NCBI GenBank assembly: GCA_001600815.1
Contig: BCKZ01000015.1
Coordinates: forward strand, 434,001-498,000
Origin: Alloascoidea hylecoeti
Taxonomy: Eukaryota
Length of the DNA: 64,000 nt
Direction of reading: 5' to 3'
The notes beneath the pieces were generated by a model. The model saw only the letters and a list, made by a program, of their open reading frames with translations. It was not told the DNA's origin and made no database searches. The position numbers and the translations under genes are program-made. This document shows positions 29,238-64,000 of this stretch, piece after piece. Position 1 is the first letter of the stretch. Every line of letters begins with the position of its first letter.

Positions 29238-29782
29238 TTATGCTCTTAGCATGGGTCTACTGTGAACAAATTTTTTCAAATCATCAATAACAGCAACGCC
29301 TAATACAAAACGTCTATCTAAATCGGTAACAACAGCAAATGGTTCACCAGTGGAGAAGAATTTTGCGAGATTCTCTAGCGGGGTATCAGGAGTAATTTTA
29401 ATAAATTCTCGCTGCTTGGGACCATTTTTAACGAATTTTATAAGGTAATCAGAAACTTTTTTCACTGCAAATTGATCAGCCTTCGGTTGTGATTGTAATA
29501 GTTCCCTTAGTCTATCAGCACGTAGGTATCCAATTAAGGATTTGTTCTTTGGAGAGATAACAGGGAGATATGAATATGATCGTTCGTAAGAAGCTTCAAG
29601 AGCATCCAGAAGAGGTGTTGAAGGATAAATTGTAAATGCTGGAGGCAGATCAAGATCCTCTATAGTAGCCTAATAATAGAAATATCTATTAGATTAGATG
29701 GTTGACTTATTTTACAGCGGAGTACACTTACACCTCTAAAATCTATCTTTGTAAAATCGACATTTTGCTGGGGTTGTGGCAT
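29238..29782 (-). CDS. Stand-alone CBS-pair (Bateman) domain protein. Exons 29782-29732 and 29669-29238 (160 aa)
   Basis: A GTAAGT..CTAAT..TAG intron joins MPQPQQNVDFTKIDFRG|ATIEDLDLPPA..YERSYSYLPV..LIGYL..ITPDTPLENLAKFF..FAVVTD..VLGV..DLKKFV. No PLP catalytic domain. Confidence 0.85.
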
Positions 29783-29892
29783 TTTTTGATAATGGTTGGA
29801 AGTTTAAAACAGGATAGCAGTGAGTGGTGCAGAGTGGCAGGCCCGGAAATCAAATATTCGAATATCCGAACACGCAAACCGAATCACAACGG

Positions 29893-29918
29893 CCGGGTAA
29901 CCATCACACGTCACGTGA
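29893..29918. promoter_or_regulatory. Reb1-like CCGGGTAA plus Cbf1-like GTCACGTGA in a GC-rich divergent promoter (CBS gene / ZRC1)
   Basis: CCGGGTAA at 29893-29900 and GTCACGTGA at 29910-29918. Confidence 0.5.
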
Positions 29919-30226
29919 AGTCCGGGAAACAGGAGAGCCGGGTAGCTGCTGCCCGGATTCCGGACGTGTACGGTATAAACTTTAAGGTGATTATTGGCGT
30001 TGGTACGCGTCATGGGCCGGAAGTGGAACCGATTGCTTCGTTTATTGGCCTGTGGAACGAAAACAAAGAAAATGCTGATGATGGTGCTAGTGCCATACAG
30101 CTAACCATGTTTACCATATATAATTAAATTTTTGTGTCGATTTTTACCACCTTTTTTTCGGAAACCACTTCACGTAACAATATTAATTGTCCTGTTTGGC
30201 CTTCAACTGCTGGAGAATTATATACA

Positions 30227-37262: not shown

Positions 37263-37548
37263 AGATAAATCTAAAACTAAGTTTAAGATGTAATGGGAGT
37301 TTTTTCAAAGAAAAGAGGTCCAGAGAAAAATTTATAGTGATAAGACATGAACTTAAATAATAAAATAGAGTGATTGGTATAGATGGAATAGATTGCTGGA
37401 TTCGTAAACCCAGTGTGAACGAGTTAAACGAAAGGTTTTCATTGAATATGCTTTCTCGTTTTGTTGGCTCGCATTTGTGACTTATCATAATGGGGCCCGT
37501 ATAAATATTTGCATTCGGAAAACACTTCCAGTACTACTGCATTTAATC

Positions 37549-38454
37549 ATGAACAGATCAAGATCAAGAAGCAGATCTGGAGAGAAAGCAGGAAAAAGCG
37601 CAGTTCGATATCGGTCTCCGTACAATTTACGATCCAATCTCCGGAATATAGTGGAAGCACAAAGTCCCCCCAAGCCTAAATCAGTTTCTTCTCCAGAAGC
37701 CTCCAGCATTTCTTTTCTGGGTTGTTATGAGTCTGCTTGTGAAGCTGATGATGAGTTGGAGCCATTGCTTGCCAGCTGGCCGAGAATAAAGGCTACCACC
37801 AAGCCTACCACCAAGCCTATCACCAAGCCTATCACTAGGCCTACACATGTAGCTAAGTCTATGGCTAAGCCTGTGGCTAAGCCTGTGGCTAAGCCAAATA
37901 ACCAAGCATGGCTTGGATGGTTGTTTGCAATTACTCTAACGGCTTTGGTTGCTTACAATTGGGCCCCTGTTAAATCTTCAACTTTGGTCACAGAACCACT
38001 TAGGGAAAGCGAACACGAAAGCGAAAGCGGATGCGATGTCCGTCGCGGATGCTATACGGAACTTTCACCCCACGTCGCTCTGGATGTGCCTCTCAACGCC
38101 AGTGAGGGGCTCGCAGCGGTGGAAATATCAGTGAGGACGCTGTACGATGACCAGTTTCCGTTCCACGCTCTGGAGTTGGCGGTGCGAGTGGATGGCCTAG
38201 AAGCAGGGACGGTCCGGCCGTTTGCGCACAGATATCACCTCAGCAGCGACGAATTTCCTTGGATCCAGCTCATGAGCACATGGAAACAGTCCATCACCAG
38301 CTTGAGTGCCGTCGCGGCCCCCCAAACAGTGCAAGTGGTTCCACAGGCTCTACCCTCAGTGTCCGGCTGGCACCCTCGTCCCTCTGTGCCTCCACGTGAT
38401 GGCCACACAACTTCCGCACAGCGCTGCTTCTGTTTTAAGGCCTGCAAATGCTAA
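37549..38454 (+). CDS. Orphan single-pass membrane protein with an RS-rich N-terminus, KPxx repeats and a GC-rich C-terminal region
   Basis: ATG at 37549 (MNRSRSRSRS), TM-like WLGWLFAITLTALVAYNW, 301-aa ORF. The C-terminus weakly resembles PNGase A. Confidence 0.6.
   Translation: MNRSRSRSRSGEKAGKSAVRYRSPYNLRSNLRNIVEAQSPPKPKSVSSPEASSISFLGCYESACEADDELEPLLASWPRIKATTKPTTKPITKPITRPTHVAKSMAKPVAKPVAKPNNQAWLGWLFAITLTALVAYNWAPVKSSTLVTEPLRESEHESESGCDVRRGCYTELSPHVALDVPLNASEGLAAVEISVRTLYDDQFPFHALELAVRVDGLEAGTVRPFAHRYHLSSDEFPWIQLMSTWKQSITSLSAVAAPQTVQVVPQALPSVSGWHPRPSVPPRDGHTTSAQRCFCFKACKC
37789..37895 (+). repeat. Coding 12-bp tandem repeats (AAGCCTACCACC / AAGCCTGTGGCT variants)
   Basis: Encodes KATT-KPTT-KPIT-KPIT-RPTH...KSMA-KPVA-KPVA-KP. 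Confidence 0.8.
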
Positions 38455-38606
38455 TTATGCATAATTAATACTCTTACCTCTTCGCTGCTCATTCTTTCTT
38501 GAAACTTCTCTCCTTTCTTCTTTTTTTCACTTCCCACTTCTTTCGGATTCTCATATTTTATTCCTCGTCGGTTCTCCAGATCTTACACATCTGTCCTGTA
38601 TTCTGA

Positions 38607-39005
38607 ATGGCTCTCCAAATCCTCAAGAACTCAGATCTTGCTACCTGGATCCGCCATGGATCCGCTCCAAACGGGGCCTTTGTTGTTGTCGATGTTAGAG
38701 ACTACGACTATATTGGGGGGCATATCAAGAACTCTCTACATTTCCCTTACGATACATTCGTATCACAGATCCATGAACTATTAGACCAGACTAGCTCTAT
38801 ACCTAATGTCATTTTTCATTGTTCCTTGTCTCAACAGAGAGGACCTTCTGCTGCAAGAAAATATTTTCAAATAATATCAGAAAGAGGTTCTGTTGATAAG
38901 ACAGTATATATCCTAAAGGGCGGCTTCACCGAATGGCAAGCAAAGTATGGAGAGGATACTTCTTTAACCTCCAACTTCAGAAAGGATATATGGCGTGGTT
39001 TTTAA
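38607..39005 (+). CDS. YCH1: Cdc25-like rhodanese phosphatase / arsenate reductase (Ych1/Acr2/Ibp1 family)
   Basis: VDVRDYDYIGGHIKNS, active loop FHCSLSQQRGPSAA, YILKGGFTEW. Confidence 0.88.
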   Translation: MALQILKNSDLATWIRHGSAPNGAFVVVDVRDYDYIGGHIKNSLHFPYDTFVSQIHELLDQTSSIPNVIFHCSLSQQRGPSAARKYFQIISERGSVDKTVYILKGGFTEWQAKYGEDTSLTSNFRKDIWRGF

Positions 39006-53241: not shown

Positions 53242-55509
53242 TCATTGTTTCAAACTACTCAATTTAAAAACAAAAGACAACAATGTAGATAAAGCAAGCG
53301 CAATACAAATAAAAGTTGGTCCAATTTTATCATCATATCGAACGGCTCTTTTATTTCGAATAGCAATGACTCTCCAAATATATAGCCCGGTTGAATATAA
53401 AATTGTAATAACGGCTGTGAAGAAAAATCCCACAGCTGCTGCCAAAGCGGCTGCATCTCCATAATTTAGTAACGCAATGGAAGTACCACCGATTAACAGG
53501 GCAATTGATAACCATGATAGGAACGTACGTTCAGTTGCAAAATATACTTTGGGTTCAACACGAATAGGAACACATATTTTCTTACCAGGTGGTGCTCTAA
53601 ATCTGGATTCATAAACAATATTGGCTCCACCGAATGTTCTGTTATCAGCAACAAAATGTCTAACAGCTGACCAAATCTTATGACTTTTATTAGCGACTTG
53701 TGAGAGGCCCTTAGAGACAGTGGTTGAAATGACATTTCCTTGGCGTCGAGAAGGTGAACCGTTGAGTAGAGGAGCGCTAGCAGATGAAGAAAGATAAGTG
53801 CCATCAATTTCTTCTGGTTCGTAGTTATCATCATCAGAGAATCTAACCGCTTTTCTATTATCGTTCCCACCATTAGGTAAGTCTTCTAATACTTCTTCTT
53901 CATCTAACTCATTAATAGATTCACTTTGAGTTGAGCCATGATCTGGTCTTTCTATACCATAATTTTGATCTGCAGGTTTTCTAATATCGGTATCCATCTG
54001 AGGTAACCAGAAGGGTATTAAATTGGCTTTATCGGGCAATAAAGCAGCAGTTCCATGAATGAATTTTGAAAATTTTGGAACAGCTTCAACTAAATGAGAT
54101 CCTACCAAATCACGAACCCATTGTGGAGGTTCCTGTCCCAATTGTGTTTGTAACTTAACTTCCAAAACAGCATATGGGAAACGGCAAATATCTTTATCAG
54201 GTAATTGAGTAAATGGCCAATCAACTCCAATATCCATTCTACGCCAGTTTTTATTAGTTCTATCCTTACCATCAAAATTGTCTTCTCTAGTCATTGTTAA
54301 CTCTGTATCCAATGAAATACGGACACGAGCATCACCAGGTAATTGAAAAGCGGTTCTATTATAAAAAGAACGAGTAACAGGATGTAATTTTCTAGTAATC
54401 ACAGAATATTGAACCTCTCGAGCCAAAGCTTCTAAAGATTCAATTTCTTTTATAGATTTCTTTTTATCTTTTCTCATTTTATCAAATGCTTGATCAACAG
54501 TAAATTTTCCTTCCATAAAAGCATTAACATGTTTTTCTTTTAAAACAAATCTTGCTTTAACTGATTTTTCACCGGTCCAATCTTCACGATGAGTTTTCCT
54601 TTCAACAAAGATTTGATCAGAACCCATTCCACCATACCATCTTAATCTGATTGCTTCAGCACCTTCATCTTTTCTAAGACGTCCAAGATACAATTCTAAA
54701 TCTTTATTATCATAATAAATTGAAGTAATTGCAGAATCTTCTTTTTCAAATTCTTTATTTGAATTAAAAACAAGAACAGGTAAATGTTTTAAAATAATTA
54801 ATTTTAATTCTGTTATATTATCAGGATGAACCCAATATTTTGTTGTTTGACGAACAAAATTTTGTTGACCACCACCAGCAGATGAATCACCTTTAACAGG
54901 ATTACCTCTAGTTCTAACTAAATCATATAATTTTGATAATTTAACAATTAATATGTCATAATTATCTTTAAAAAAAGGTTTTGCATTTAATCTAACAGAA
55001 AAAATGGGTTTTAGAATCCAACCGGTTTGTTTATCATGTTTTTTAATAATTTTTTGAAACCCAGTATAATTTAAACGAGAAAATTTAGCCATATCATGAA
55101 CATTTGCAATAATATCAGATAATTCTTCTTCCAAAAATTCAAAATCTGCGTCATCTGGTGGAGAACTTGAACCAATTGATTCTACTACTTCATCAACTTC
55201 TCTTTCAGAATCTTTAATTCTTCGGGTAATTTCACCAATTTTCACTTTTTGAAAAGTATAGACTTTATCTAATTCGGCTTCTAGTGAGGCAACAAAAGTT
55301 TCTTCCAATTCATCGGTCCATTTTGAATTTTGTGCCAATCCAGCTTTTAACTCATTCTTAAGGTCATCGTACGAGATATAGTAGTAATAGTAGTCTCTAA
55401 AATTAAGTTAGTTTCCATTTTCAACAGTTGAAGGTTCAGCACTTTTCAAATCCTCGATCAACCAAACTTACCGAATAAGAGATGTTTTCAACTGTTGTCC
55501 GAACTTCAT
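53242..55509 (-). CDS. VTC4: Vacuolar polyphosphate polymerase Vtc4. Exons 55509-55472 and 55396-53242
   Basis: SPX start [26 protein letters not shown] via a GTAAGT..ACTAAC..TAG intron; [46 protein letters not shown]. Confidence 0.96.
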
Positions 55510-55625
55510 GGTTGAAGAGATTGAGTTTCCTGAAGTTGGAGATTTAAATTTAAATTTAAGCCTTTCAATAAACACATGGGCTTCAAACATCCAATGACCT
55601 CAAGACAAAGATCAACCATGAAATG

Positions 55626-55633
55626 CCGGGTAA
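55626..55633. promoter_or_regulatory. Reb1-like site in the 177-bp VTC4/RPC17 bidirectional promoter
   Basis: CCGGGTAA exact match between the divergent ATGs. Confidence 0.5.
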
Positions 55634-55686
55634 ATCGACATTTTTATATTGGCAAAAAAATAAATAAGTGAATTTGAATAGAAAAA

Positions 55687-56242
55687 ATGAAGGTATAAAA
55701 CAATTCATATCCATTTATTTTTTAGTAACTTGGTTTAACAAAATATATAATAGGTCGAAGTTATTAGAGAAAATGATTTATCAAATTTTGAAGTCCTTGA
55801 AGAATTAAAGACGATACATGGAGATAGAGAACAGAGGAAAGGATCCGGAATTGTAGCAGCAAAAGGCTTCATCACAATAACTGAAGATGTATGTTATTAA
55901 ATCTTTATATCTAATAATATTTACTAACTTTAGTTTTTATTATGATAGCTACGGCAGTATTTAGAAAAAACACCTGCTGAATCTCAAACCACCGAAAATA
56001 TAGAAGAATTTATGAAACAACTAAATCATTATAAATTGGAGAAGGTTGAAAAATTACAAATTTTAAACAATACACCTCATTCAGCTGTTCATTTATATGG
56101 AATTGTTGAAGAATGTGATCAAAGATTTTCAGAAGATGAAATAGAAGCTATTTTAAAGTTGGTAGAAACGTATTTCCCAGCTCCAGAAGTTGAAGGAGAA
56201 GAAGAAGAATGGGATGAAGAAATGGAAGAAGCTGATATTTAA
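55687..56242 (+). CDS. RPC17: RNA polymerase III subunit C17. Exons 55687-55692, 55754-55888, 55949-56242
   Basis: MK|VEVIRENDLSNFEVL...LEKVEKLQILNNTPHSAVHLYGIVEECDQRF. Two GT-AG introns, the second with TACTAAC. Confidence 0.88.
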
Positions 56243-56388
56243 TAATTGAACTTTTATTTTTTATAACTTTTGTGCACTGTGTAATTTAAGATTTATGATA
56301 TTTGGACGTATGGGTGTACTTCATTCGACAACAGATACGGTAAGATGTAAACAATATATTTAACTTCATAATCAACTACATATTAAAA

Positions 56389-57886
56389 ATGGATCCAAAT
56401 ATCGTTTCATTTGATGATATAGAACTACACAAAGAAAACATTGAACCTATACGAGAAGGAAGATCTGCAAAAGCATTAGTTAATGCATTTTCATCTGAAC
56501 CATTTGAGTTAAAAGACACCCAGTTAAAAGAACGACAGTTTTTTGAACAACAATTATTAGAAGCAGAAGAATTAGATGATCCATTACAACCATATTTGGA
56601 TTATTTAGATTGGATCATTAAAACTTATCCACAAGGACAAAGTGTTGAAAGTGGTTTAGTTTCATTATTAGAAAAATGTACTTCAGTTTTTAAAGATTTT
56701 GAATTTTATAAAAATGATCCAAGATATTTAAAAGTTTGGATATGGTATATAAAATATATTGATTCACCAAGAGATTATTTTCAGTATTTATCAAGAAAAA
56801 AAATTGGTTTAAATTTAGCAACTTATTATGAAGAATTTGCAAAATATTTAGAAGCAAATAATCGAAAATTACAAGCTGATGAAATTTATCAAACAGGTTT
56901 ATCAAATAAAGCAAGACCAATTGAAAGATTACAAAAAAGATATGATGAATTTTTAAAAAGAGTGGAATTAAATCCACCTGAAACAAATGAACCTAATTCA
57001 CCGGCAATACCACCAGTTCGAAGTGCATTGGCTGTTAAAGAAATATCTCTTGATCGTAGTAGTAGTAGTGAACCAGATATAACAATCACAATTCCAAAAT
57101 CAAATAAACCAAAGATGAAGTTGGCTGTTTTTGAAGATCCTGATGGTATAGAAGATGGTGCTAAAGCAACAAATTCTGGTGGTTGGGATACAATAGGTAG
57201 TATTGCTTCAAGAAGGAAAGAAAATGTCGTTGAAGCTAAATCTTGGGTTGGTGAAACATTACCAATGAAAGGTAAAATCAATAAAACTCATGAAAAGATA
57301 TCTATATTTAGAGATGAGGTATGTTTTTATTTCAAAAAATTTAATTTAAACGAAGTTCTAACAGAATATTATATATAGAACTCTTCATCTGATATTTTTA
57401 AAGATACAGAACATATTTATAAAACTATTTTACATCCAGGTAAAAAAACAGAACGAATTGATTTAAATATTGATCTATTATATCCAAATGATGAATTAGA
57501 ATTTTGTTTAAATGAAATTTTAGCAAAAACAAAAAAAATATCAATTAATGATTTTAAATCAAAAACCACAATAACTTACTCTTCATTGGGTGAAGTTACA
57601 ACAACTCAAACTGTTCCTTTAAATGGTATGTATGTTATTAATTCATGATGAATAATAATTACTAATAAATTTTATTATTTATTTAGGCCTAGGTGAGAAT
57701 TTTCAAAATTTCAATACGTCATCTACACCAGATCCAACAATAACCGCTTGTACAAAAGCAGCAACAGATGAAGTTTTATCAATGTTTAGTCAACCTTTAA
57801 CAAAAGAAGATGTATTTGATGGGCCTGAACATACAGGAAATACAGGCAAATTTAATTTAGAAGAAGGTGATTTTGAAGAAGAATAG
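56389..57886 (+). CDS. MAD3: Kinase-less Mad3/BubR1-type spindle checkpoint protein. Exons 56389-57318, 57379-57625, 57687-57886 (458 aa)
   Basis: KENIEP KEN box, TPR (DDPL, YKNDPRYLKVW), ABBA-KEN-ABBA (LAVFED..RRKEN..ISIFRD), GLEBS-like LLYPNDELEFCLNEILA. Stop at 57886. Confidence 0.85.
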
Positions 57887-58230
57887 TTTATTTAAATGCT
57901 TATGATAATAATGATCTTCTAAGAATATTAATGATTATTGATTTGCTTGAAACTTCTTTCAATTTAAATTCCTATTCTATCACTACCTACTATAGTCTAC
58001 TATTTTATAATAATGTTTGATATCGATTCGATATAGATATTTGAAAATTATAATAATTCCCCATGATATTTGTGTATATCCGTTTACATGTATCATGCAT
58101 ATATAATACAGAGTTATAATTCGGATTAATTTTTTATGATTTACAATTGATTGATGATTATATGACAATATTCAAATTACACGTAAATTTATATTATAAA
58201 TAAAAATTATGATATGATCATAAGTTGTAA

Positions 58231-59505
58231 TTATATTTCAGAGTTTGAATTATGTAAATTGAGATCATCTATATTGTTCGAAATATTTAAATTGCTGATA
58301 ATAGAATCTCTGTTATTTAAAGTTTGACTTTGATTTCTTTCACGATTCTGATCTGAATTTATTGGATTTGGACTATTAACAGTTGAAGATAAATGAATTT
58401 GATTTATTGTATTTTCACGTCTTGGCCAAACGGAAGGTAAAGCTACTTGTTGAAATCTTGGGGAAACACATCTATCAACGAACCATTTACGTAATCTTGA
58501 TTCGATTAATTCACCAACTTTTGGAACATCTTGTAATTTTGAACGAGAGCCAATAAGGGATTTTATTTGAAATTCAAGTCTGTAATCAGGAGCAAAAGAA
58601 AAAAGTAAAGAAGCGCTACTTTTTTTCTTTTTCTCGTCGTTATTATCAGTAGCAGTAGTAGCAGCAGCAGCAGCAGCAGCAGCAGCAGTTTCAGTTGAAT
58701 CAGTAGGGATTAAAGTGATGGTTAAACAAGCGGAAAATCTCACGATTGAAACGCTTAAAGAAACAGGCAAAGCAGCCATTAATAATTTTGGATAATTTAA
58801 TAATAATTTGGACTCAACACCAAAAGTTAAAGTATCAGATAAATCAACATCAATTTTTGCTTCCAAACCAGAATTATCGGCGGTGTGTTTAATTCTACAG
58901 TTACTGAATATGGGGAAATCATCACCAATATCAACTTCAGTAACGTTAATTGTATCGATAAAGTCGGGTAATGTGAGGCCCGTTATGATCTCATTTAAAG
59001 TTTTTTCGAGCTTGCCATTTGTATTGGCTTCGTCTCTGAATTGACTAATGATCTGGGCAATTAAGACATTGAACCAATCCAGAGATTCGGGGGCATGGGT
59101 AGAAACGTTGTAATAGGTCTTTTCGAGGATGGTTGCTATGGAAACGTTGGGTTCAGGAGACTGGGGCACCGGAGTCTTCTTGTGGGACGGGGAAAGAAAG
59201 GAGGTGAAAGTTGCGGAGGAAGGAGTTGACGCATCGGAAAATATGAAGAATCTGATGGCGACGGCGACGATGAGGATGACACTGAGCTGGCCGATCTGTA
59301 CGAAAGAGTGTGAGGATGTATTGCACGGGTACGGGCGAGGGTAGAAGACTTACAATGAAACCCTGGGCAAACCCCCAGCTAGGCACGTGTTAGTAAGTGT
59401 GAGCAGACGGCCTCGGCGACGGACTTACCTGCTCCGGTCCTGGTGGAGGGACAGCTTATCGGAGATCTCTGCCAGCTGAGCTTGTACTTGTGGGACTTGT
59501 TCCAT
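58231..59505 (-). CDS. MMM1: ERMES subunit Mmm1. Exons 59505-59429, 59378-59354, 59295-58231
   Basis: Splicing restores the TM WGFAQGFI|IGQLSVILIVAVAIRFFIF. SMP domain: PESLDWFNVLIAQ, IGDDFPIFSNCRI, SLIGSRSKLQDVPK, LPSVWPR. Confidence 0.93.
58660..58687 (-). repeat. Trinucleotide microsatellite encoding poly-Ala in Mmm1
   Basis: (GCA)9 run on the + strand. Confidence 0.85.
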
Positions 59506-59520
59506 TAGGTGCTACTGAGT

Positions 59521-60184
59521 CTAAGCTACTATGAAGAAGGGCGACGGGCCGGGTAACACCGCGCGTCTCTGCGCTGTCTCCGCTCTTTGCGCTCTCTGCG
59601 CCTCGTCCACCTTGCCTGCGATTTCCTTCAGCGCCCCCCGTTCCTCGGCAGATATGGCGTCCTGGGGCAGGGGTTTGGCCAGTTCCGGCTCGATGTGCAT
59701 CTGTTGAAGCGCGTTCTTCACGCACTCCACGCTGATGTTGTGCGGAATGTTGCAGTTGGCCTTACGCCTGGTCTCGTTGTGGGAAAACGTAGTCACGTCA
59801 ATCAGTTTACTGCCCACGGTCATGTTAGACACTCGCTTGGGTTGCCCTTAATACAGCATAGCATGCGCACAAAACTTACTCTCCTGTCTCGTTCACAATG
59901 TCATTCAGTTGCTGCTCTCGTTCCCGGTTGTGGTGCGGAGATCCGCTTATGTTGCTGCTGTTGTCAGTTAAGTGCAAACCTTAAATACTTCTGCTCGTAG
60001 TGCTCACCTTGGGTTGGTTCTTATGGTGGTTTCTGCCAATAATGGTGTTCTTTCTGTCTGCTGTTCCATTAATTTTGTTTTGGTTAGTGTTTCGAATAAC
60101 CAATACTGTAATCATGTACCTAGAACATACCTGGGGATCGTCCTTTTCTTCGCCCCCTCTTAGACAAGACAATATAATTCCCAT
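59521..60184 (-). CDS. MEH1: EGO/Ragulator anchor Ego1/Meh1 (LAMTOR1-like). Exons 60184-60131, 60060-60008, 59957-59880, 59809-59521 (~157 aa)
   Basis: Lipidation-type N-terminus MGIILSCLR, dileucine ERTPLL, and REQQLNDIVNETGDKLIDV (cf. Ego1 REQELRDIVANTNDKLIDI). Three GT-AG introns splice in frame; the acceptors of introns 1 and 2 are tandem CAGCAG, so +/-1 codon is possible. Confidence 0.85.
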
Positions 60185-60755
60185 AGTAGTATAAAAAGTG
60201 AAAGTTGAAGACACAAACCTTAAAAGACAAGAAACTTTATAAATTAAAATGAATAGAAAAAAATCAACCAAACAATTATTATTAGCAATGGTCACGTGTG
60301 TGATCTTAAGGTATGGCTCAACTTTAAAGAGCACAACTTCCCTACAGCCGATTATTCTCCATAACCATAACAGACAATGGAGTTTCCTGTTGTAGCCACG
60401 ATTAGTAAGCTTCATTTAAAATATGTAGGAATTTCTGGTTATCCCACCCCTTTGAGCTGAATGAGAGACACTCTTGAGGATCCTTTCGAGGAAGTCAGTC
60501 CGAGCTTCTTAGAATAGATTACAACTGGATAAAAGATCATTCAAGGTTTGTTTCTCCATGTCCGATTATTCTCTAAATGAAATTGTGTATTCAGCATTAG
60601 TAAGGAATACCTCTTATGATTAGTAATGGTATTTTTTATCGAAGAACATTAATAATCCTCTTTAAGCAATACTTATTTCTTATATTTTTTTTTTCGATCA
60701 TTTTTTTCATTTTTTCATTTTTTAAAATTTCTACTATTATCAGATCTTAAAAGGA

Positions 60756-62783
60756 ATGGGTTTTTTGGATATCCCAGATGAGGTTATTCAAATTATCATT
60801 TCTTACCTTGATATATCATCTTTTTACAATCTTTCACTATCATGTCCTACTTTATTGAAATTCTTTATAAACCCTCAATATGATAAATTGTTCAAAAATA
60901 TCTCTATACAACAACAATTTTATTTTCTAACTTCTGCAACTACTGATAGAAATACACAAACTCCTTGGAAAAATGCAATAAAAAGATATTCAAATATAAA
61001 ACAAAATTTTGATAAGGTTATTGATATATCTGATAAAGATTTATATAAACCGCCAAAAGTTTTGAAATCGGTTCCAGTTAATAAATCTTTATTATCACCT
61101 TTGGATTTTGTTTGCTCTATGCCCTTCAAAGGTCCATGTGGTTTATGTGTAGATTTCGATGAGGATGAAACTACTGTCAGCGATTCTAAAGTTTTAGATT
61201 TACAATTACGTGCTTGGGACATTAAAACACGACCAAATTGGAAACCAACAACTGAACGCCAAAATACATTTAAATGCAATTGTAATCAAAACTGTAATTG
61301 TTTATCTCGTTTTTCACAACCTCATAATCAACAAATTTCAACTATTATTCCAAATTCAAAAAGAAAACTTCATCTTATACCTTTATTAATCCTCGGTAAT
61401 CATGAATCAATTAATTTAAAAGATAATAATAATACTCTTGAAGTTAAAACTTCAAAATATTCAAATACTACTTGTTTAAATCAAGATGAAATAACAAATT
61501 GTCAATCTAATGTAAATACATGGGATAATCTAATATTTATGACTGGAAGTGCTTTTCAATGGAAAATTAAATTACCTTTAAACATAAATTTAAAATTCCC
61601 TCATAAGTTGAAATATGAAATTTATCATAATATTTTATATTTAATGTTTGTTGAAAAGCATAATTCAAAAGTAATTATTATGGCATATAAATGTATTGAA
61701 ATAAATCATAATACAGATAGCACAACCGATAAAACCACAAACATAAACCCAAATGATATTACTAATCAAAACTTTTCAAAACTTTTATGGATAACAAAAC
61801 TTGATGATAAATCACATTCAATTTATAGAGATATTTCGGTTAATCATAATTATATTGTTATTAGTATGTCATGGAATACATCAACTGTACATCCTGTTGT
61901 TGTTTTATTAAGAGATACTGGTCATATATTAGGTATTCATGAAAATTCACAAGGTTTTAAATATCATCGAATAAATGGATCATTTGTTATGTGCTATAAA
62001 CATGTTACTTGTCCTGATAAATTAAGTGATGATGATGACGATGATGATGATGAAGATGAAGATTATGTTAATTATGATGGTTGTGGTAAAAGATATGTTA
62101 CTAAAAATGGGATTTTTTCAAAACCATTAAAAGTATTTTTACAAGAATTAGAAACAAGTGAAAAGCATTGGAAATTATTAAAAAGAAGTTTTGGTTTAAA
62201 CTCAAAAAATTGTAATACAAATATACCTTTTGGATTAAAAATATTTATTGAATTACAAAAACAAAAATTAAAATCAAATGTTAAAATTGAAAAATCATTA
62301 CAATTAAATATAATTAATAATTTTTTATCTTCACAATTATCTCAAAATATGAATCAACATGAAGAAATTGAACCTTGGAAACCTGTAATTGTACAAGAAT
62401 CAAAACATTGTAAAATATATGAATCATTAAATTTTCAATGGTGGTTATTTGATGATTGTTTAATAACATTAGCACTTTTACCTGATGAAAAATTTAAAAA
62501 TGTTGATACAGATATGGTAATGTCTGATGTTGATTCAGATACATCAATAATTAATAATTCTCAAGAAACATCAACTTCTTCAAATACTTTAAATCCTACA
62601 CGTGAATCATATCGAAGAAATGGTTGTGTTTGTCTTTATAATTTTGTTACTGGGAAAAAGAAATATTATGATATGGGATTAATTAGTTTGGAAAAAGAAA
62701 ATAAGAAATGTTTACTCATTGATGATGATTTTTATGGTTTGGTTTTACATGATGATCATGTTGAAAAACTACAACATGATTAA
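60756..62783 (+). CDS. F-box protein with a divergent C-terminal region
   Basis: N-terminal F-box FLDIPDEVIQIIISYLDISSFYNLSLSCPTL in a 675-aa ORF. Substrate-binding domain not recognised. Confidence 0.8.
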   Translation: MGFLDIPDEVIQIIISYLDISSFYNLSLSCPTLLKFFINPQYDKLFKNISIQQQFYFLTSATTDRNTQTPWKNAIKRYSNIKQNFDKVIDISDKDLYKPPKVLKSVPVNKSLLSPLDFVCSMPFKGPCGLCVDFDEDETTVSDSKVLDLQLRAWDIKTRPNWKPTTERQNTFKCNCNQNCNCLSRFSQPHNQQISTIIPNSKRKLHLIPLLILGNHESINLKDNNNTLEVKTSKYSNTTCLNQDEITNCQSNVNTWDNLIFMTGSAFQWKIKLPLNINLKFPHKLKYEIYHNILYLMFVEKHNSKVIIMAYKCIEINHNTDSTTDKTTNINPNDITNQNFSKLLWITKLDDKSHSIYRDISVNHNYIVISMSWNTSTVHPVVVLLRDTGHILGIHENSQGFKYHRINGSFVMCYKHVTCPDKLSDDDDDDDDEDEDYVNYDGCGKRYVTKNGIFSKPLKVFLQELETSEKHWKLLKRSFGLNSKNCNTNIPFGLKIFIELQKQKLKSNVKIEKSLQLNIINNFLSSQLSQNMNQHEEIEPWKPVIVQESKHCKIYESLNFQWWLFDDCLITLALLPDEKFKNVDTDMVMSDVDSDTSIINNSQETSTSSNTLNPTRESYRRNGCVCLYNFVTGKKKYYDMGLISLEKENKKCLLIDDDFYGLVLHDDHVEKLQHD

Positions 62784-64000
62784 TCAATATAACACTCATA
62801 TATGTTTCTTTTTATATATACACATTCTCTTTTTTTCTTTTTATGATTTTCTATTGTTTGATAACTCATTTATTCTTGTGTTTACTGTGTCTTTTTACTT
62901 CATTTGTTTTATACTTTTTTATATTATTAGCTAGTTTTGCTTTGAAATGATGATTATGATGGATATCATATATCTATATAAATGTAATATATTATCATAT
63001 CTATATTTACCGCATTGCTTAATAAAGGGTCGAAGTATCCACATAGTTATAGTAATCATAACATTGGGCCAGTGGAATATGAAGCCTAATCGAGATTAAT
63101 GTTTTGAATAGTAGGTCCAGGAGTAAAATCTTAATTGATTTGTCCAAGTTAGCTATGGGTTGGTCTGTTCGACTAGGTGGGATATTAATAACATTGAATT
63201 ATGTCAGGTATTTGGTTTTCTATTAAACACAGCAAATGTTTGCATTTATACAAGAATTATTCCTACTTGTAATAGACAGATAGGATCTGGGGCTAATGCT
63301 TGTAAAAATACTATTAAACTTTTAATGTGCAAATTTCGGGGATCATTAATTACACGTGACCTGGGGGGGAAAAAAGCGCGGTGCATGTTGTGAAGGTCCC
63401 TCTTTTAATTTACGAGATGCATATACTCTTATATGACATTTTACTTGTAATCACAATAAGAATGAATCGGAAGGCTTGTAATTGGATCCTTATTTAATTC
63501 ATGTTGATCCATCGTGGTAACTTTAAATGTGCAGGGAGACTTAATAAATTTTATAATGGAAAAGCATGAATCGAAAAGGGATGCTGATCACAGATCTCCC
63601 ATAAGTATGACTACAAATTGTTTTATTTCTGGTGGAGATAAGGTTAATATTGGTTGTAACACAATTATTTGCATATGATCGTATTTCGAATTCGAGGACC
63701 AATGCCATGAACCTCGCGGAAATACTATGGCTGTCATAATTAATCGATTATAAGGTTCACAGACTTGCGAGTAATTATGAACATGAAAGATGCCGTATAT
63801 GCACAATTTTATAAAAATATGTTTATGGAATTTCCAAGTCTAGGCCAAGTCTATTAAAAGTATGAACGTTGAACAGTCATGACCATTTTATACCTGACAT
63901 TGAAATAAAAATATATAAAACGAAATATGACACAGCGTCTTTGAAGATATTTAAAGCTTTAAGTTGTATTAATTTCCTAATTTGTAAAAATCAGATTTAA

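Follow-up and report, generated by a model that had tools for sequence, protein, structure and literature searches.

The window is the whole stretch of DNA that was analysed, 64,000 nt of contig BCKZ01000015.1 of Alloascoidea hylecoeti (positions 434,001 to 498,000 of the forward strand); all positions given here are those of the window. It carries approximately one gene per 2.5-3 kb, generally with intergenic gaps of hundreds of nucleotides. Two tandem minus-strand genes, an EGO1/MEH1-like gene followed by MMM1, form a tight pair that is a local exception to this spacing. The features of the locus are listed in Table 1.

Table 1. Features of the EGO1-MMM1 locus and its flanks, sorted by position.
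Feature	Position	Strand	Characteristics
AT-rich convergent 3' region after MMM1	57887..58230		MMM1 3' flank 81% AT; TATATA at 58105
MMM1 gene	58231..59505	-	Exons 59505-59429, 59378-59354, 59295-58231; 1167 nt, 388 codons
GC island	58949..60091		300-nt windows >45% GC; covers EGO1 exons 2-4, spacer and first ~120 MMM1 codons, introns too
Spacer ACTCAGTAGCACCTA	59506..59520	-	15 nt between EGO1 stop and MMM1 ATG; read from sequence
EGO1/MEH1-like gene	59521..60184	-	4 exons, 157-158 codons; splice signals and frame
EGO1-like exons	60184-60131, 60060-60008, 59957 (or 59960)-59880, 59809-59521	-	Splice signals, frame
Reb1-consensus octamer TTACCCGG	59549..59556	-	In EGO1 codons GTG TTA CCC GGC (V-L-P-G); candidate MMM1 promoter core
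AT-rich divergent promoter region	60185..60755		Between EGO1 and F-box gene; EGO1 5' flank 71% AT; CACGTG at 60298
F-box gene	60756-62783	+	Divergent neighbour of EGO1

The assignment of the downstream gene to Mmm1, the ER-anchored SMP-domain subunit of ERMES, is supported by a profile match: the product of exon 3 covers all of Pfam MMM1 PF10296 (profile positions 1-244/244, E 9.1e-111, 369.4 bits for a cut-off of 21.9). Homologues numbered 1633 (best 57% identity). Exon 2 is a 25-nt microexon encoding a conserved W-x-F-x-Q-G motif that precedes the single membrane helix; both can be aligned to 45 homologues. The N-terminal stretch before the helix core G-Q-L-S-V has 34 aa, compared with 0-119 aa in homologues, and the tail encoded by exon 1 is not more similar to homologue tails than shuffled sequences are (25 of 100 shuffles reach the best score). 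The start at ATG 59505 is forced, because the frame contiguous with exon 2 on its upstream side meets a TAA without any ATG, exon 1 has a single ATG with its frame shut by a TAG three codons above, and exon 1 left unspliced runs into a TAA at the donor. The base at -3 of this ATG is C.

The upstream gene has a spliced length of 474 or 477 nt, in frame. Its introns are 50-70 nt long, with donors GTATGT, GTGAGC and GTAAGT and branch sites of the CTAAC/CTGAC type. By its motifs, which are the basis of this assignment, it looks Ego1/Meh1-like, Ego1/Meh1 being the LAMTOR1-type lipidated scaffold of the EGO complex. Exon 1 encodes MGIILSC, i.e. Met-Gly and a nearby Cys, a predicted lipidation-type N-terminus. 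The product of exon 4 has K-L-I-D-V at its start and LPGPSPFFIVA at its end. The former may correspond to the Gtr2-contact loop Ile72-x-Ile74 of S. cerevisiae Ego1, where two aliphatic residues flank an Asp, and the P-G-P-type tail presumably resembles the end of the same protein. In S. cerevisiae Ego1, residues 1-32 are described as the myristoylation and palmitoylation region, and Ile72-x-Ile74 as the Gtr2-contact loop, Phe184 being also named (PMC6760929).

Protein homology tools were queried with the contiguous products of exon 4 (95 aa) and exon 3 (25 aa) separately. The exon 4 product had no Pfam match at E<=1 and no Atlas match; an all-against-all phmmer search of 1.84 billion representatives returned itself and one 795-aa low-complexity match only; word-index searches at near and longer protein lengths gave no homologue of it at E<=10. 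Neither exon 4 nor exon 3 matched Ego1 in the PDB at E<=10, and the longer-length protein search contained no annotated Ego1-Mmm1 fusion. The outcome of these protein, Pfam, PDB and Atlas searches would suit a reading in which the last exon is an open frame that arose by chance in GC-rich DNA, or the EGO1 gene is decaying or ends elsewhere, the DNA upstream of MMM1 being an ordinary promoter. GC-rich DNA does yield long ORFs by chance: the island holds one of 147 aa on the plus strand and one of 101 aa in a further minus-strand frame, and at ~60% GC roughly 5% of frames are estimated to be open for 96 codons. This reading is nevertheless improbable. Exon 4 is preceded by a canonical intron in the correct phase, belongs to a gene whose exon 1 has the MG...SC lipidation-type start, and ends a few residues past a P-G-P-type tail of the kind at the end of S. 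cerevisiae Ego1; its GC3 (0.65-0.85) exceeds its GC12 (0.38-0.62), as in the adjoining bona fide MMM1 codons. The putative likeness of its K-L-I-D-V start to the Gtr2-contact loop described in PMC6760929 points the same way. Moreover, Ego1 is described as highly variable among yeasts (PMC6760929), so that failed homologue searches are expected.

On the minus strand, the EGO1-like stop TAG is at 59523-59521 and the MMM1 ATG at 59505-59503. As the spacer length is divisible by 3, the ATG shares the frame of the stop. A first-pass annotation of this DNA had described the 15-nt in-frame tandem gap, a second in-frame TAG within the spacer, a Reb1-like site inside Ego1 codons, and a lack of room for a terminator plus a promoter. 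Rereading of coordinates and letters agrees with it: the second TAG is present at 59514-59512, the site is TTACCCGG at 59556-59549, and neither AT-rich promoter-like nor terminator-like DNA lies between the genes. The RNA of the junction folds no better than shuffles (z +1.36).

Contigs compared over 55000-63000 came from two DNA metagenome runs, one second strain and one metatranscriptome. An assembly artefact can be dismissed, because the junction recurs in a metagenome contig covering 58701-60095 (0 differences) and in a second-strain contig covering 59405-62769 (4 differences, none in 59506-59556). Strain variation amounts to 11 substitutions in 8 kb, with 0 in 59506-59809, too few for a test of constraint. 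The metatranscriptome gave just one 39-nt contig (3 mismatches) and one chimeric 183-nt contig over this interval, neither of them usable, and a look-up of sequencing runs containing 57900-60500 returned none of RNA.

A 15-nt gap is unusual. The other readable same-strand ORF gaps in the window are 153, 215, 925 and 1224 nt, and in 10 metagenomic loci related to this one MMM1 is preceded by a gap of 237-785 nt. Adjacency of EGO1 and MMM1 is read as derived, because related yeasts carry a cytidylyltransferase gene upstream of MMM1 (at 237-491 nt). Spliced Ego1 used as a tblastn query against 80 metagenomic MMM1 loci (best 57% identity) gave low-complexity matches only (E>=0.69), and an Ego1 motif scan of the 80 loci gave 2 matches, both irrelevant. 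The anatomy of the coding sequences shows that two real, unrelated genes have come to lie side by side in this lineage, without any remaining intergenic DNA. As there is no room outside EGO1, either the MMM1 promoter lies inside the neighbouring gene or one RNA is common to both genes.

The junction is the centre of a GC island of 1.1 kb (61% vs 32% GC), the maximum of which (61.3%) is centred at 59548, on the TTACCCGG site. Elevated GC is also found at silent sites and in introns: GC3 is 0.70-0.85 near the junction vs 0.05-0.30 in distal MMM1, and introns in the island have 50-58% GC vs 31% for EGO1 intron 1. Four GC peaks occur in the window, and just two of them clearly have their centre close to a putative promoter motif. 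The peak at 29688-30186 coincides with a promoter-like stretch with TTACCCG, CACGTG and TATAAA, ~270 nt upstream of a cation-efflux gene; one peak is ~300 nt inside GPI16, and one falls in the 3' portion of an ORF, with ~360 nt still to go to the next gene. The 29688-30186 peak speaks for the model favoured below; that GC peaks are not all at promoters counts against it. The third-position purine fraction is 0.57-0.62 in EGO1 and 0.35-0.37 in MMM1 vs 0.40-0.57 for 18 other ORFs; the coding strand flips from purine to pyrimidine near the MMM1 start, at silent sites. This silent-site flip is real but is not counted as TSS evidence.

Both flanks at the junction are outliers relative to 18 other ORFs: the 150 nt upstream of the MMM1 ATG have 39% AT (60-80% for the others), and the EGO1 3' flank 43% AT (69-81%). 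The first TAYRTA/AAWAAA hexamer after the EGO1 stop is found at 514 nt, compared with 3-284 nt elsewhere, and neither gene is followed by terminator-like DNA until the AT-rich region at 57887..58230 is reached. No TATA-like octamer occurs on the minus strand between 60700 and 58106. GC-rich DNA devoid of poly(dA:dT) is atypical as a yeast promoter, which counts against an embedded promoter.

The TTACCCGG octamer, given as the Reb1 consensus in PMC5052057, lies 43 nt before the MMM1 ATG and 25 nt before the EGO1 stop; its TTACCCG part is at 59550-59556. TTACCCG is enriched about fourfold in the window (11 observed vs 2.62 expected; 0 of 100 shuffles reach 11). Outside the gene pair, 4 of 9 sites are within 150 nt upstream of long-ORF ATGs (binomial P 2.7e-4), the 150-nt zones upstream of 17 such ATGs making up 4% of the window. 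The spacing between site and start had been annotated as similar to that of Reb1-like sites at other genes. This is borne out just loosely: in the four clear promoter cases TTACCCG is 69-131 nt from the ATG vs 43-51 nt at MMM1, and this shorter distance counts against an embedded promoter. Two further TTACCCG sites are 23 and 52 nt from short ORF starts. The second TTACCCG of the gene pair falls within the coding part of MMM1 (58965-58971), so that a copy of the motif in a reading frame does not necessarily mark a promoter. Of the 15 leucine codons in the island core (59908-59082), 14 are of the CTN type; the remaining one, a TTA, is the codon forming TTACCCGG, an argument from 1 codon among 15.

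Reb1 sites of S. cerevisiae are reported within ORFs and 3'UTRs; Pol II reads through 495 of them, and 322 roadblock it (PMC5052057). In view of the read-through at 495 sites, a putative Reb1 site within EGO1 need not kill EGO1. Nevertheless, a bound site 25 nt before its stop could truncate or block EGO1 transcripts. Such roadblocking is awkward for a promoter embedded in this exon. A close likeness is SNR161-PDX3 as described in PMC5052057, where the TSS is 80 bp downstream of the Reb1 site: the octamer here, identical to the consensus given in that paper, is likewise just upstream of the start of the next gene and in the path of upstream transcription. Unlike there, the putative site here is in a protein-coding exon, where a roadblock would cut an mRNA and not a snoRNA or cryptic transcript.

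The reading given most weight, with a probability of about 0.5, is that a separate TATA-less promoter of the Reb1 type, located in the last EGO1 exon, drives MMM1 and that EGO1 transcripts continue into MMM1. TTACCCG enrichment, promoter proximity, the lone TTA and the island peak at 59548 lean towards an embedded promoter; the 514 nt without a poly(A)-like hexamer and the 43% AT flank lean towards an EGO1 3'UTR passing through MMM1. In this model, MMM1 would be transcribed from a TATA-less general-regulatory-factor promoter with its Reb1-consensus core and nucleosome-free region in the EGO1 last coding exon; MMM1 mRNAs would have their 5' ends in approximately the final 100 nt of the EGO1 frame and be translated normally from ATG 59505. 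EGO1 transcripts, having no AT-rich 3'-end signal, would continue for 500 nt or more within MMM1 and might reach its terminator, so that many EGO1 mRNAs would be bicistronic in format while yielding Ego1 alone. The GC island would have been left by GC-biased repair, acting at a recombination hotspot on the embedded promoter; this repair may have raised the G and C content of silent sites and introns and shifted part of the protein sequences in the same direction. The first-pass annotation had offered a bicistronic RNA or an exon-embedded promoter; both were fair options, and the evidence leans to the promoter without deciding between them.

One alternative to an embedded promoter is an operon-like arrangement: Mmm1 would be made mainly or solely from a single EGO1-MMM1 mRNA that starts at the EGO1 promoter, ribosomes restarting 15 nt past the Ego1 TAG. 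The very short spacer and the lack of AT-rich promoter-like or terminator-like DNA between the genes would suit it. However, the upstream ORF is long (157-158 codons) and classical 40S reinitiation requires short ORFs; the MMM1 ATG has C at -3; and the 90 nt leading up to the EGO1 stop showed no 18S-pairing motif of the UGGGA type, which comes from calicivirus work. The enrichment of the TTACCCGG motif and the codon usage at this site also indicate a promoter. Translation of Mmm1 from a true bicistronic mRNA thus appears less likely than an embedded promoter, and such an mRNA is an unlikely main source.

Comparison with S. cerevisiae cuts both ways. Wu & Cox 2021 (PMC8573964) report 367 bicistronic transcripts, the highly expressed ones having shorter, GC-richer and less structured spacers. 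The EGO1-MMM1 pair is like them in being same-strand neighbours, here with a 15-nt spacer in a 61% GC island, and its GC-rich junction, folding no better than shuffles, resembles that of the highly expressed ones. Those transcripts were shown by TIF-seq, whereas one covering EGO1 and MMM1 would be a prediction from DNA sequence; the majority of the pairs in that study additionally produce monocistronic forms and are separated by ordinary intergenic DNA, and they are not known to include two conserved housekeeping-type genes just 15 nt apart (PMC8573964). Second genes of yeast bicistronic RNAs are moreover reported to have lower translation efficiency (PMC8573964). For 80S reinitiation, Sun, Bock & Li 2025 (PMC11952965) describe activity at 0-50 bp between stop and start (15 nt here), which is best with short spacers in activated S. 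cerevisiae strains. According to the same source, the process is normally off, the second cistron not being translated in normal yeast, and is inhibited by extra stops in the spacer; an extra in-frame TAG is present here. The earlier argument that this second TAG counters simple readthrough is sound; extra spacer stops also reduced 80S reinitiation in the activated S. cerevisiae strains (PMC11952965), and the same TAG speaks against an operon-like restart. Rather improbable is the fuller claim of a natural two-gene operon, born by deletion at a GC-marked recombination hotspot, in which Mmm1 would come mainly from the EGO1-MMM1 mRNA via restart, its output tied to that of Ego1.

Alternative splicing of a pre-mRNA from the EGO1 promoter could also deliver the MMM1 ATG: an early EGO1 donor would be joined to an AG near this ATG, leaving a short uORF that ends at one of the TAGs, followed by efficient reinitiation at MMM1. 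A pyrimidine run and four AGs (CATAG, CTTAG, CTCAG, GTAG at 59527-59512) directly precede the ATG, and EGO1 exon 1 (54 nt, phase 0) joined to any of them stops within 0-3 codons. YMR147W_OSW5/Ldo45, in which a splice joins adjacent genes, is an S. cerevisiae precedent (PMC8573964, Table 1). However, no CTAAC, CTGAC or CTCAC is found in the 100 nt before the AGs, whereas all five real introns of the two genes have a branch site, and an intron of ~600 nt would be needed, compared with 50-70 nt in these five. This alternative is very improbable.

In compacted genomes such as those of microsporidia and nucleomorphs, genes contain the promoters and 3' ends of their neighbours, and an mRNA includes parts of more than one of them. 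The overlapping transcription units proposed for EGO1-MMM1 would be of this kind; those genomes are compact throughout, whereas the tight pair here is a local exception. If the MMM1 promoter is in the EGO1 exon, the same bases would carry protein code, a transcription-factor site and recombination-hotspot drift, in an otherwise non-compact genome. The locus would then be a natural test of a yeast promoter working inside a transcribed exon, of Pol II passing or failing at a Reb1-type exon site, and of where an mRNA ends when no terminator follows its stop codon. If bicistronic translation is true instead, it would be a rare natural case of second-cistron translation in a budding yeast; an operon would tie the output of Mmm1, the ER anchor of an ER-mitochondria tether, to that of the vacuolar TORC1 anchor.

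The junction between the EGO1-like gene and MMM1 is real DNA. The tandem arrangement described by the first-pass annotation, with its 15-nt spacer and a Reb1-like site inside EGO1 codons, was re-read on the minus strand, and every letter and coordinate was correct. The EGO1 stop and the MMM1 start share one frame. A metagenome contig (58701-60095) carries the junction with 0 differences and a second-strain contig (59405-62769) carries it unchanged.

Features of the EGO1-MMM1 region, GC-rich stretches of the window, and the gene preceding MMM1 in L001, L002 and L005 (metagenomic loci of related yeasts carrying MMM1)
Feature	Coordinates	Strand	Description
EGO1-like gene, ATG	60184	minus	
EGO1 introns (3, short)	60130-60061, 60007-59958, 59879-59810	minus	
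TTACCCGG	59556-59549	minus	within EGO1 codons GTG TTA CCC GGC
EGO1 stop TAG	59523-59521	minus	
Spacer ACTCAGTAGCACCTA	59520-59506	minus	15 nt, EGO1 stop to MMM1 ATG
Second in-frame TAG	59514-59512	minus	in spacer
MMM1 exon 1	ATG 59505	minus	77 nt
MMM1 intron 1		minus	50 nt, GTAAGT + TACTAAC
MMM1 exon 2 (microexon)	59378-59354	minus	25 nt
MMM1 intron 2		minus	58 nt
MMM1 exon 3	ends 58231	minus	1065 nt
GC island	58949-60091		300-nt windows >45% GC
GC peak	29688-30186		promoter-like stretch upstream of cation-efflux (CDF) gene
GC peak	~300 nt inside GPI16		
GC peak, second large one	37509-38670		maximum 60%, centre 38246
Cytidylyltransferase-like gene (PF01467)	L001 3282-4700; L002 4156-5529; L005 4226-5458	MMM1's strand	

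The identity of the downstream gene as MMM1 is certain: the Pfam profile PF10296 is matched along its entire length by exon 3 (E 9.1e-111), which has 1633 homologues (best 57% identity), the named ones being Mmm1 of many budding yeasts. Its start at ATG 59505 is forced. The microexon encodes the W-x-F-x-Q-G motif that precedes the membrane helix in aligned Mmm1 homologues; the frame contiguous with it, followed upstream, reaches a TAA and contains no ATG. The exon 1 frame has a sole ATG, is closed by a TAG three codons above and, if unspliced, reaches a TAA at the donor. The resulting N-terminal tail has 26 residues before the W motif and 34 before the aligned G-Q-L-S-V membrane-helix core, inside the range of 0-119 found in 45 aligned homologues. 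Its similarity to homologue tails is not significant (25 of 100 shuffles score equally well). Further downstream (58637-58700), a (GCT)n/(ACT)n run encodes poly-Ala/Thr within the SMP-domain region; contigs from other runs break there.

The upstream gene is probably Ego1/Meh1, an identity less secure than that of MMM1. Its three introns have GTATGT, GTGAGC or GTAAGT donors and one CTAAC/CTGAC-type branch site each; the spliced frame has 157 or 158 open codons, two adjacent CAGs being alternative ends of intron 2. The product shows three Ego1/Meh1 hallmarks: an MG...SC N-terminal start, a K-L-I-D-V stretch and a short tail rich in proline. The K-L-I-D-V stretch is placed at what we take to be the point of Ile72/Ile74 in S. 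cerevisiae Ego1. These residues are given as the Gtr2 contact in PMC6760929. None of the tools found a homologue of the last exon when its 95-residue product, not the spliced protein, was the query. Codons for Ala, Arg, Gly and Pro are abundant in this exon. GC drift has probably reshaped its protein, which may be why the searches came up empty. That the exon is not what it seems is kept as a quite unlikely alternative because chance ORFs are frequent in such a GC-rich stretch; its correct intron phase, the Ego1-type motif in its first codons and a GC3 exceeding GC12 speak against it.

No GC island in the window is stronger than the one whose centre is the junction (maximum 61.3%, centred on 59548; window mean 32%). 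GC3 is 0.70-0.85 near the junction and drops to 0.05-0.30 in distal MMM1; introns within the island are 50-58% GC, EGO1 intron 1 31%. Since silent sites and introns are affected too, the island reflects regional substitution bias, not protein selection. Between the reference and the second strain, 5 of 11 substitutions (8 kb) fall inside 870 nt (59287-60152). Those at 59287, 59372 and 59460 are all C (reference) to T (second strain) on the plus strand: two are synonymous, and one replaces Asp by Asn in the tail of Mmm1. Very small as these counts are, they hint that diversity is raised in the island or that substitution there is biased. Third-position purine fractions on the coding strand are 0.57-0.62 in EGO1 and 0.35-0.37 in MMM1, the two extremes among 20 window ORFs; silent sites flip from purine-rich to pyrimidine-rich between the genes, and introns do likewise.

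Support within the window is mixed for reading such GC peaks as traces of GC-biased gene conversion at promoters. Upstream of the CDF gene, the peak contains CACGTG, TATAAA, a TTACCCG site and another, CCGGGTA-like copy; an ORF of 111 codons is called in this GC-rich promoter DNA but is probably open by chance. The second large peak lies towards the 3' end of an ORF of 301 codons, and a rhodanese-domain gene begins ~360 nt further on. The 301-codon ORF matches no Pfam family; its product has a single hydrophobic helix and repeats of the form KP(V/T/I)xKP. Only 153 pyrimidine-rich nt separate it from the rhodanese-domain ORF on the same strand; the two may form a further close tandem junction beneath a GC peak, or be a single intron-bearing gene.

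TTACCCG, contained in the Reb1-consensus site, is a genuine motif of this genome: the window has 11 sites vs 2.62 expected, a number attained in 0 of 100 shuffles. Outside the gene pair, 4 of 9 sites lie 69-131 nt upstream of long-ORF ATGs (n = 17; P 2.7e-4, these upstream zones making up 4% of the window). Two further sites lie 23 and 52 nt ahead of short ORF starts, which may belong to first exons. The EGO1-embedded copy lies 43-51 nt from the MMM1 ATG. In the island core, 14 of 15 leucine codons are CTN and the sole TTA is that of the motif; outside the island TTA dominates. The lone TTA is modest evidence that the motif resisted GC drift. A second copy inside the MMM1 coding sequence (58965-58971) warns that some sites are not promoters.

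The 15-nt gap leaves only three routes to a ribosome-usable MMM1 mRNA. The preferred one, given a probability of about one half, is a TATA-less promoter of the general-regulatory-factor (Reb1) type embedded in the EGO1 last exon, with EGO1 transcripts running into MMM1. Consistent with it are the Reb1-consensus site itself, on which the GC maximum falls, the enrichment of the motif and its tendency to lie close to promoters, and the TTA codon kept there. The 150 nt ahead of the MMM1 ATG are 39% AT (60-80% ahead of 18 other ORFs), and no TATA-like octamer occurs on the minus strand from 60700 to 58106.

Translation of Mmm1 from a bicistronic EGO1-MMM1 RNA is unlikely. Such RNAs are common in S. 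cerevisiae, where TIF-seq detected 367; those expressed well have spacers that are short, rich in GC and weakly structured, like that found here (junction RNA fold, z +1.36); however, the same source reports poor translation of their second cistrons (PMC8573964). In the reporter tests of PMC11952965, second cistrons had no translation in normal yeast, and 80S reinitiation in activated strains was inhibited by extra spacer stops, of which this spacer has one. The EGO1 ORF is also long and the MMM1 ATG context weak (C at -3). Least probable, and very unlikely, is alternative splicing, in which a transcript begun at the EGO1 promoter would be spliced onto the AGs clustered just ahead of the MMM1 start. 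These AGs and a pyrimidine run are present, but a branch-site-like sequence is missing and the intron would be ten times the length of the five real ones.

With an embedded promoter, EGO1 transcripts would have to pass the candidate Reb1 site. PMC5052057 describes Reb1 sites inside ORFs and 3'UTRs as common in S. cerevisiae, 495 being read through and 322 acting as roadblocks, depending on upstream NNS signals; on this split, passage is plausible but not free. Mutual interference of the two genes is expected to some degree. The 150 nt past the EGO1 stop are 43% AT vs 69-81% past 18 other ORFs, and the first TAYRTA or AAWAAA hexamer lies 514 nt 3' of the stop (elsewhere 3-284 nt). Because an AT-rich 3' signal is absent, the ends of EGO1 transcripts would lie 500 nt or more inside MMM1, or else at the MMM1 terminator, so many EGO1 mRNAs would be bicistronic in format.

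The EGO1-MMM1 adjacency is derived. The gap upstream of MMM1 is 237-785 nt in 10 loci; three of the nearest yeast loci have a cytidylyltransferase-like gene as tandem neighbour on the upstream side, at a distance of 237-491 nt. In these three related metagenomic yeasts, this gene and MMM1, both lipid-related, make up a conserved neighbourhood. Ego1-like sequence was found near MMM1 in 0 of 80 metagenomic loci, in a search of low sensitivity for so fast-evolving a protein. Alloascoidea hylecoeti has lost or rearranged the cytidylyltransferase-MMM1 neighbourhood.

Bicistronic and overlapping yeast transcripts, Reb1 sites as promoter organisers or roadblocks, and GC peaks at hotspots are already known; the combination of a 15-nt gap, an element in codons and a GC island is unusual. 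EGO1-MMM1 would be classed with overlapping transcription units having a promoter inside the upstream gene. In a genome otherwise not compact, 15 nt from stop to start separate two conserved, functionally unrelated genes, and the bases of a candidate promoter element double as codons beneath a GC island.
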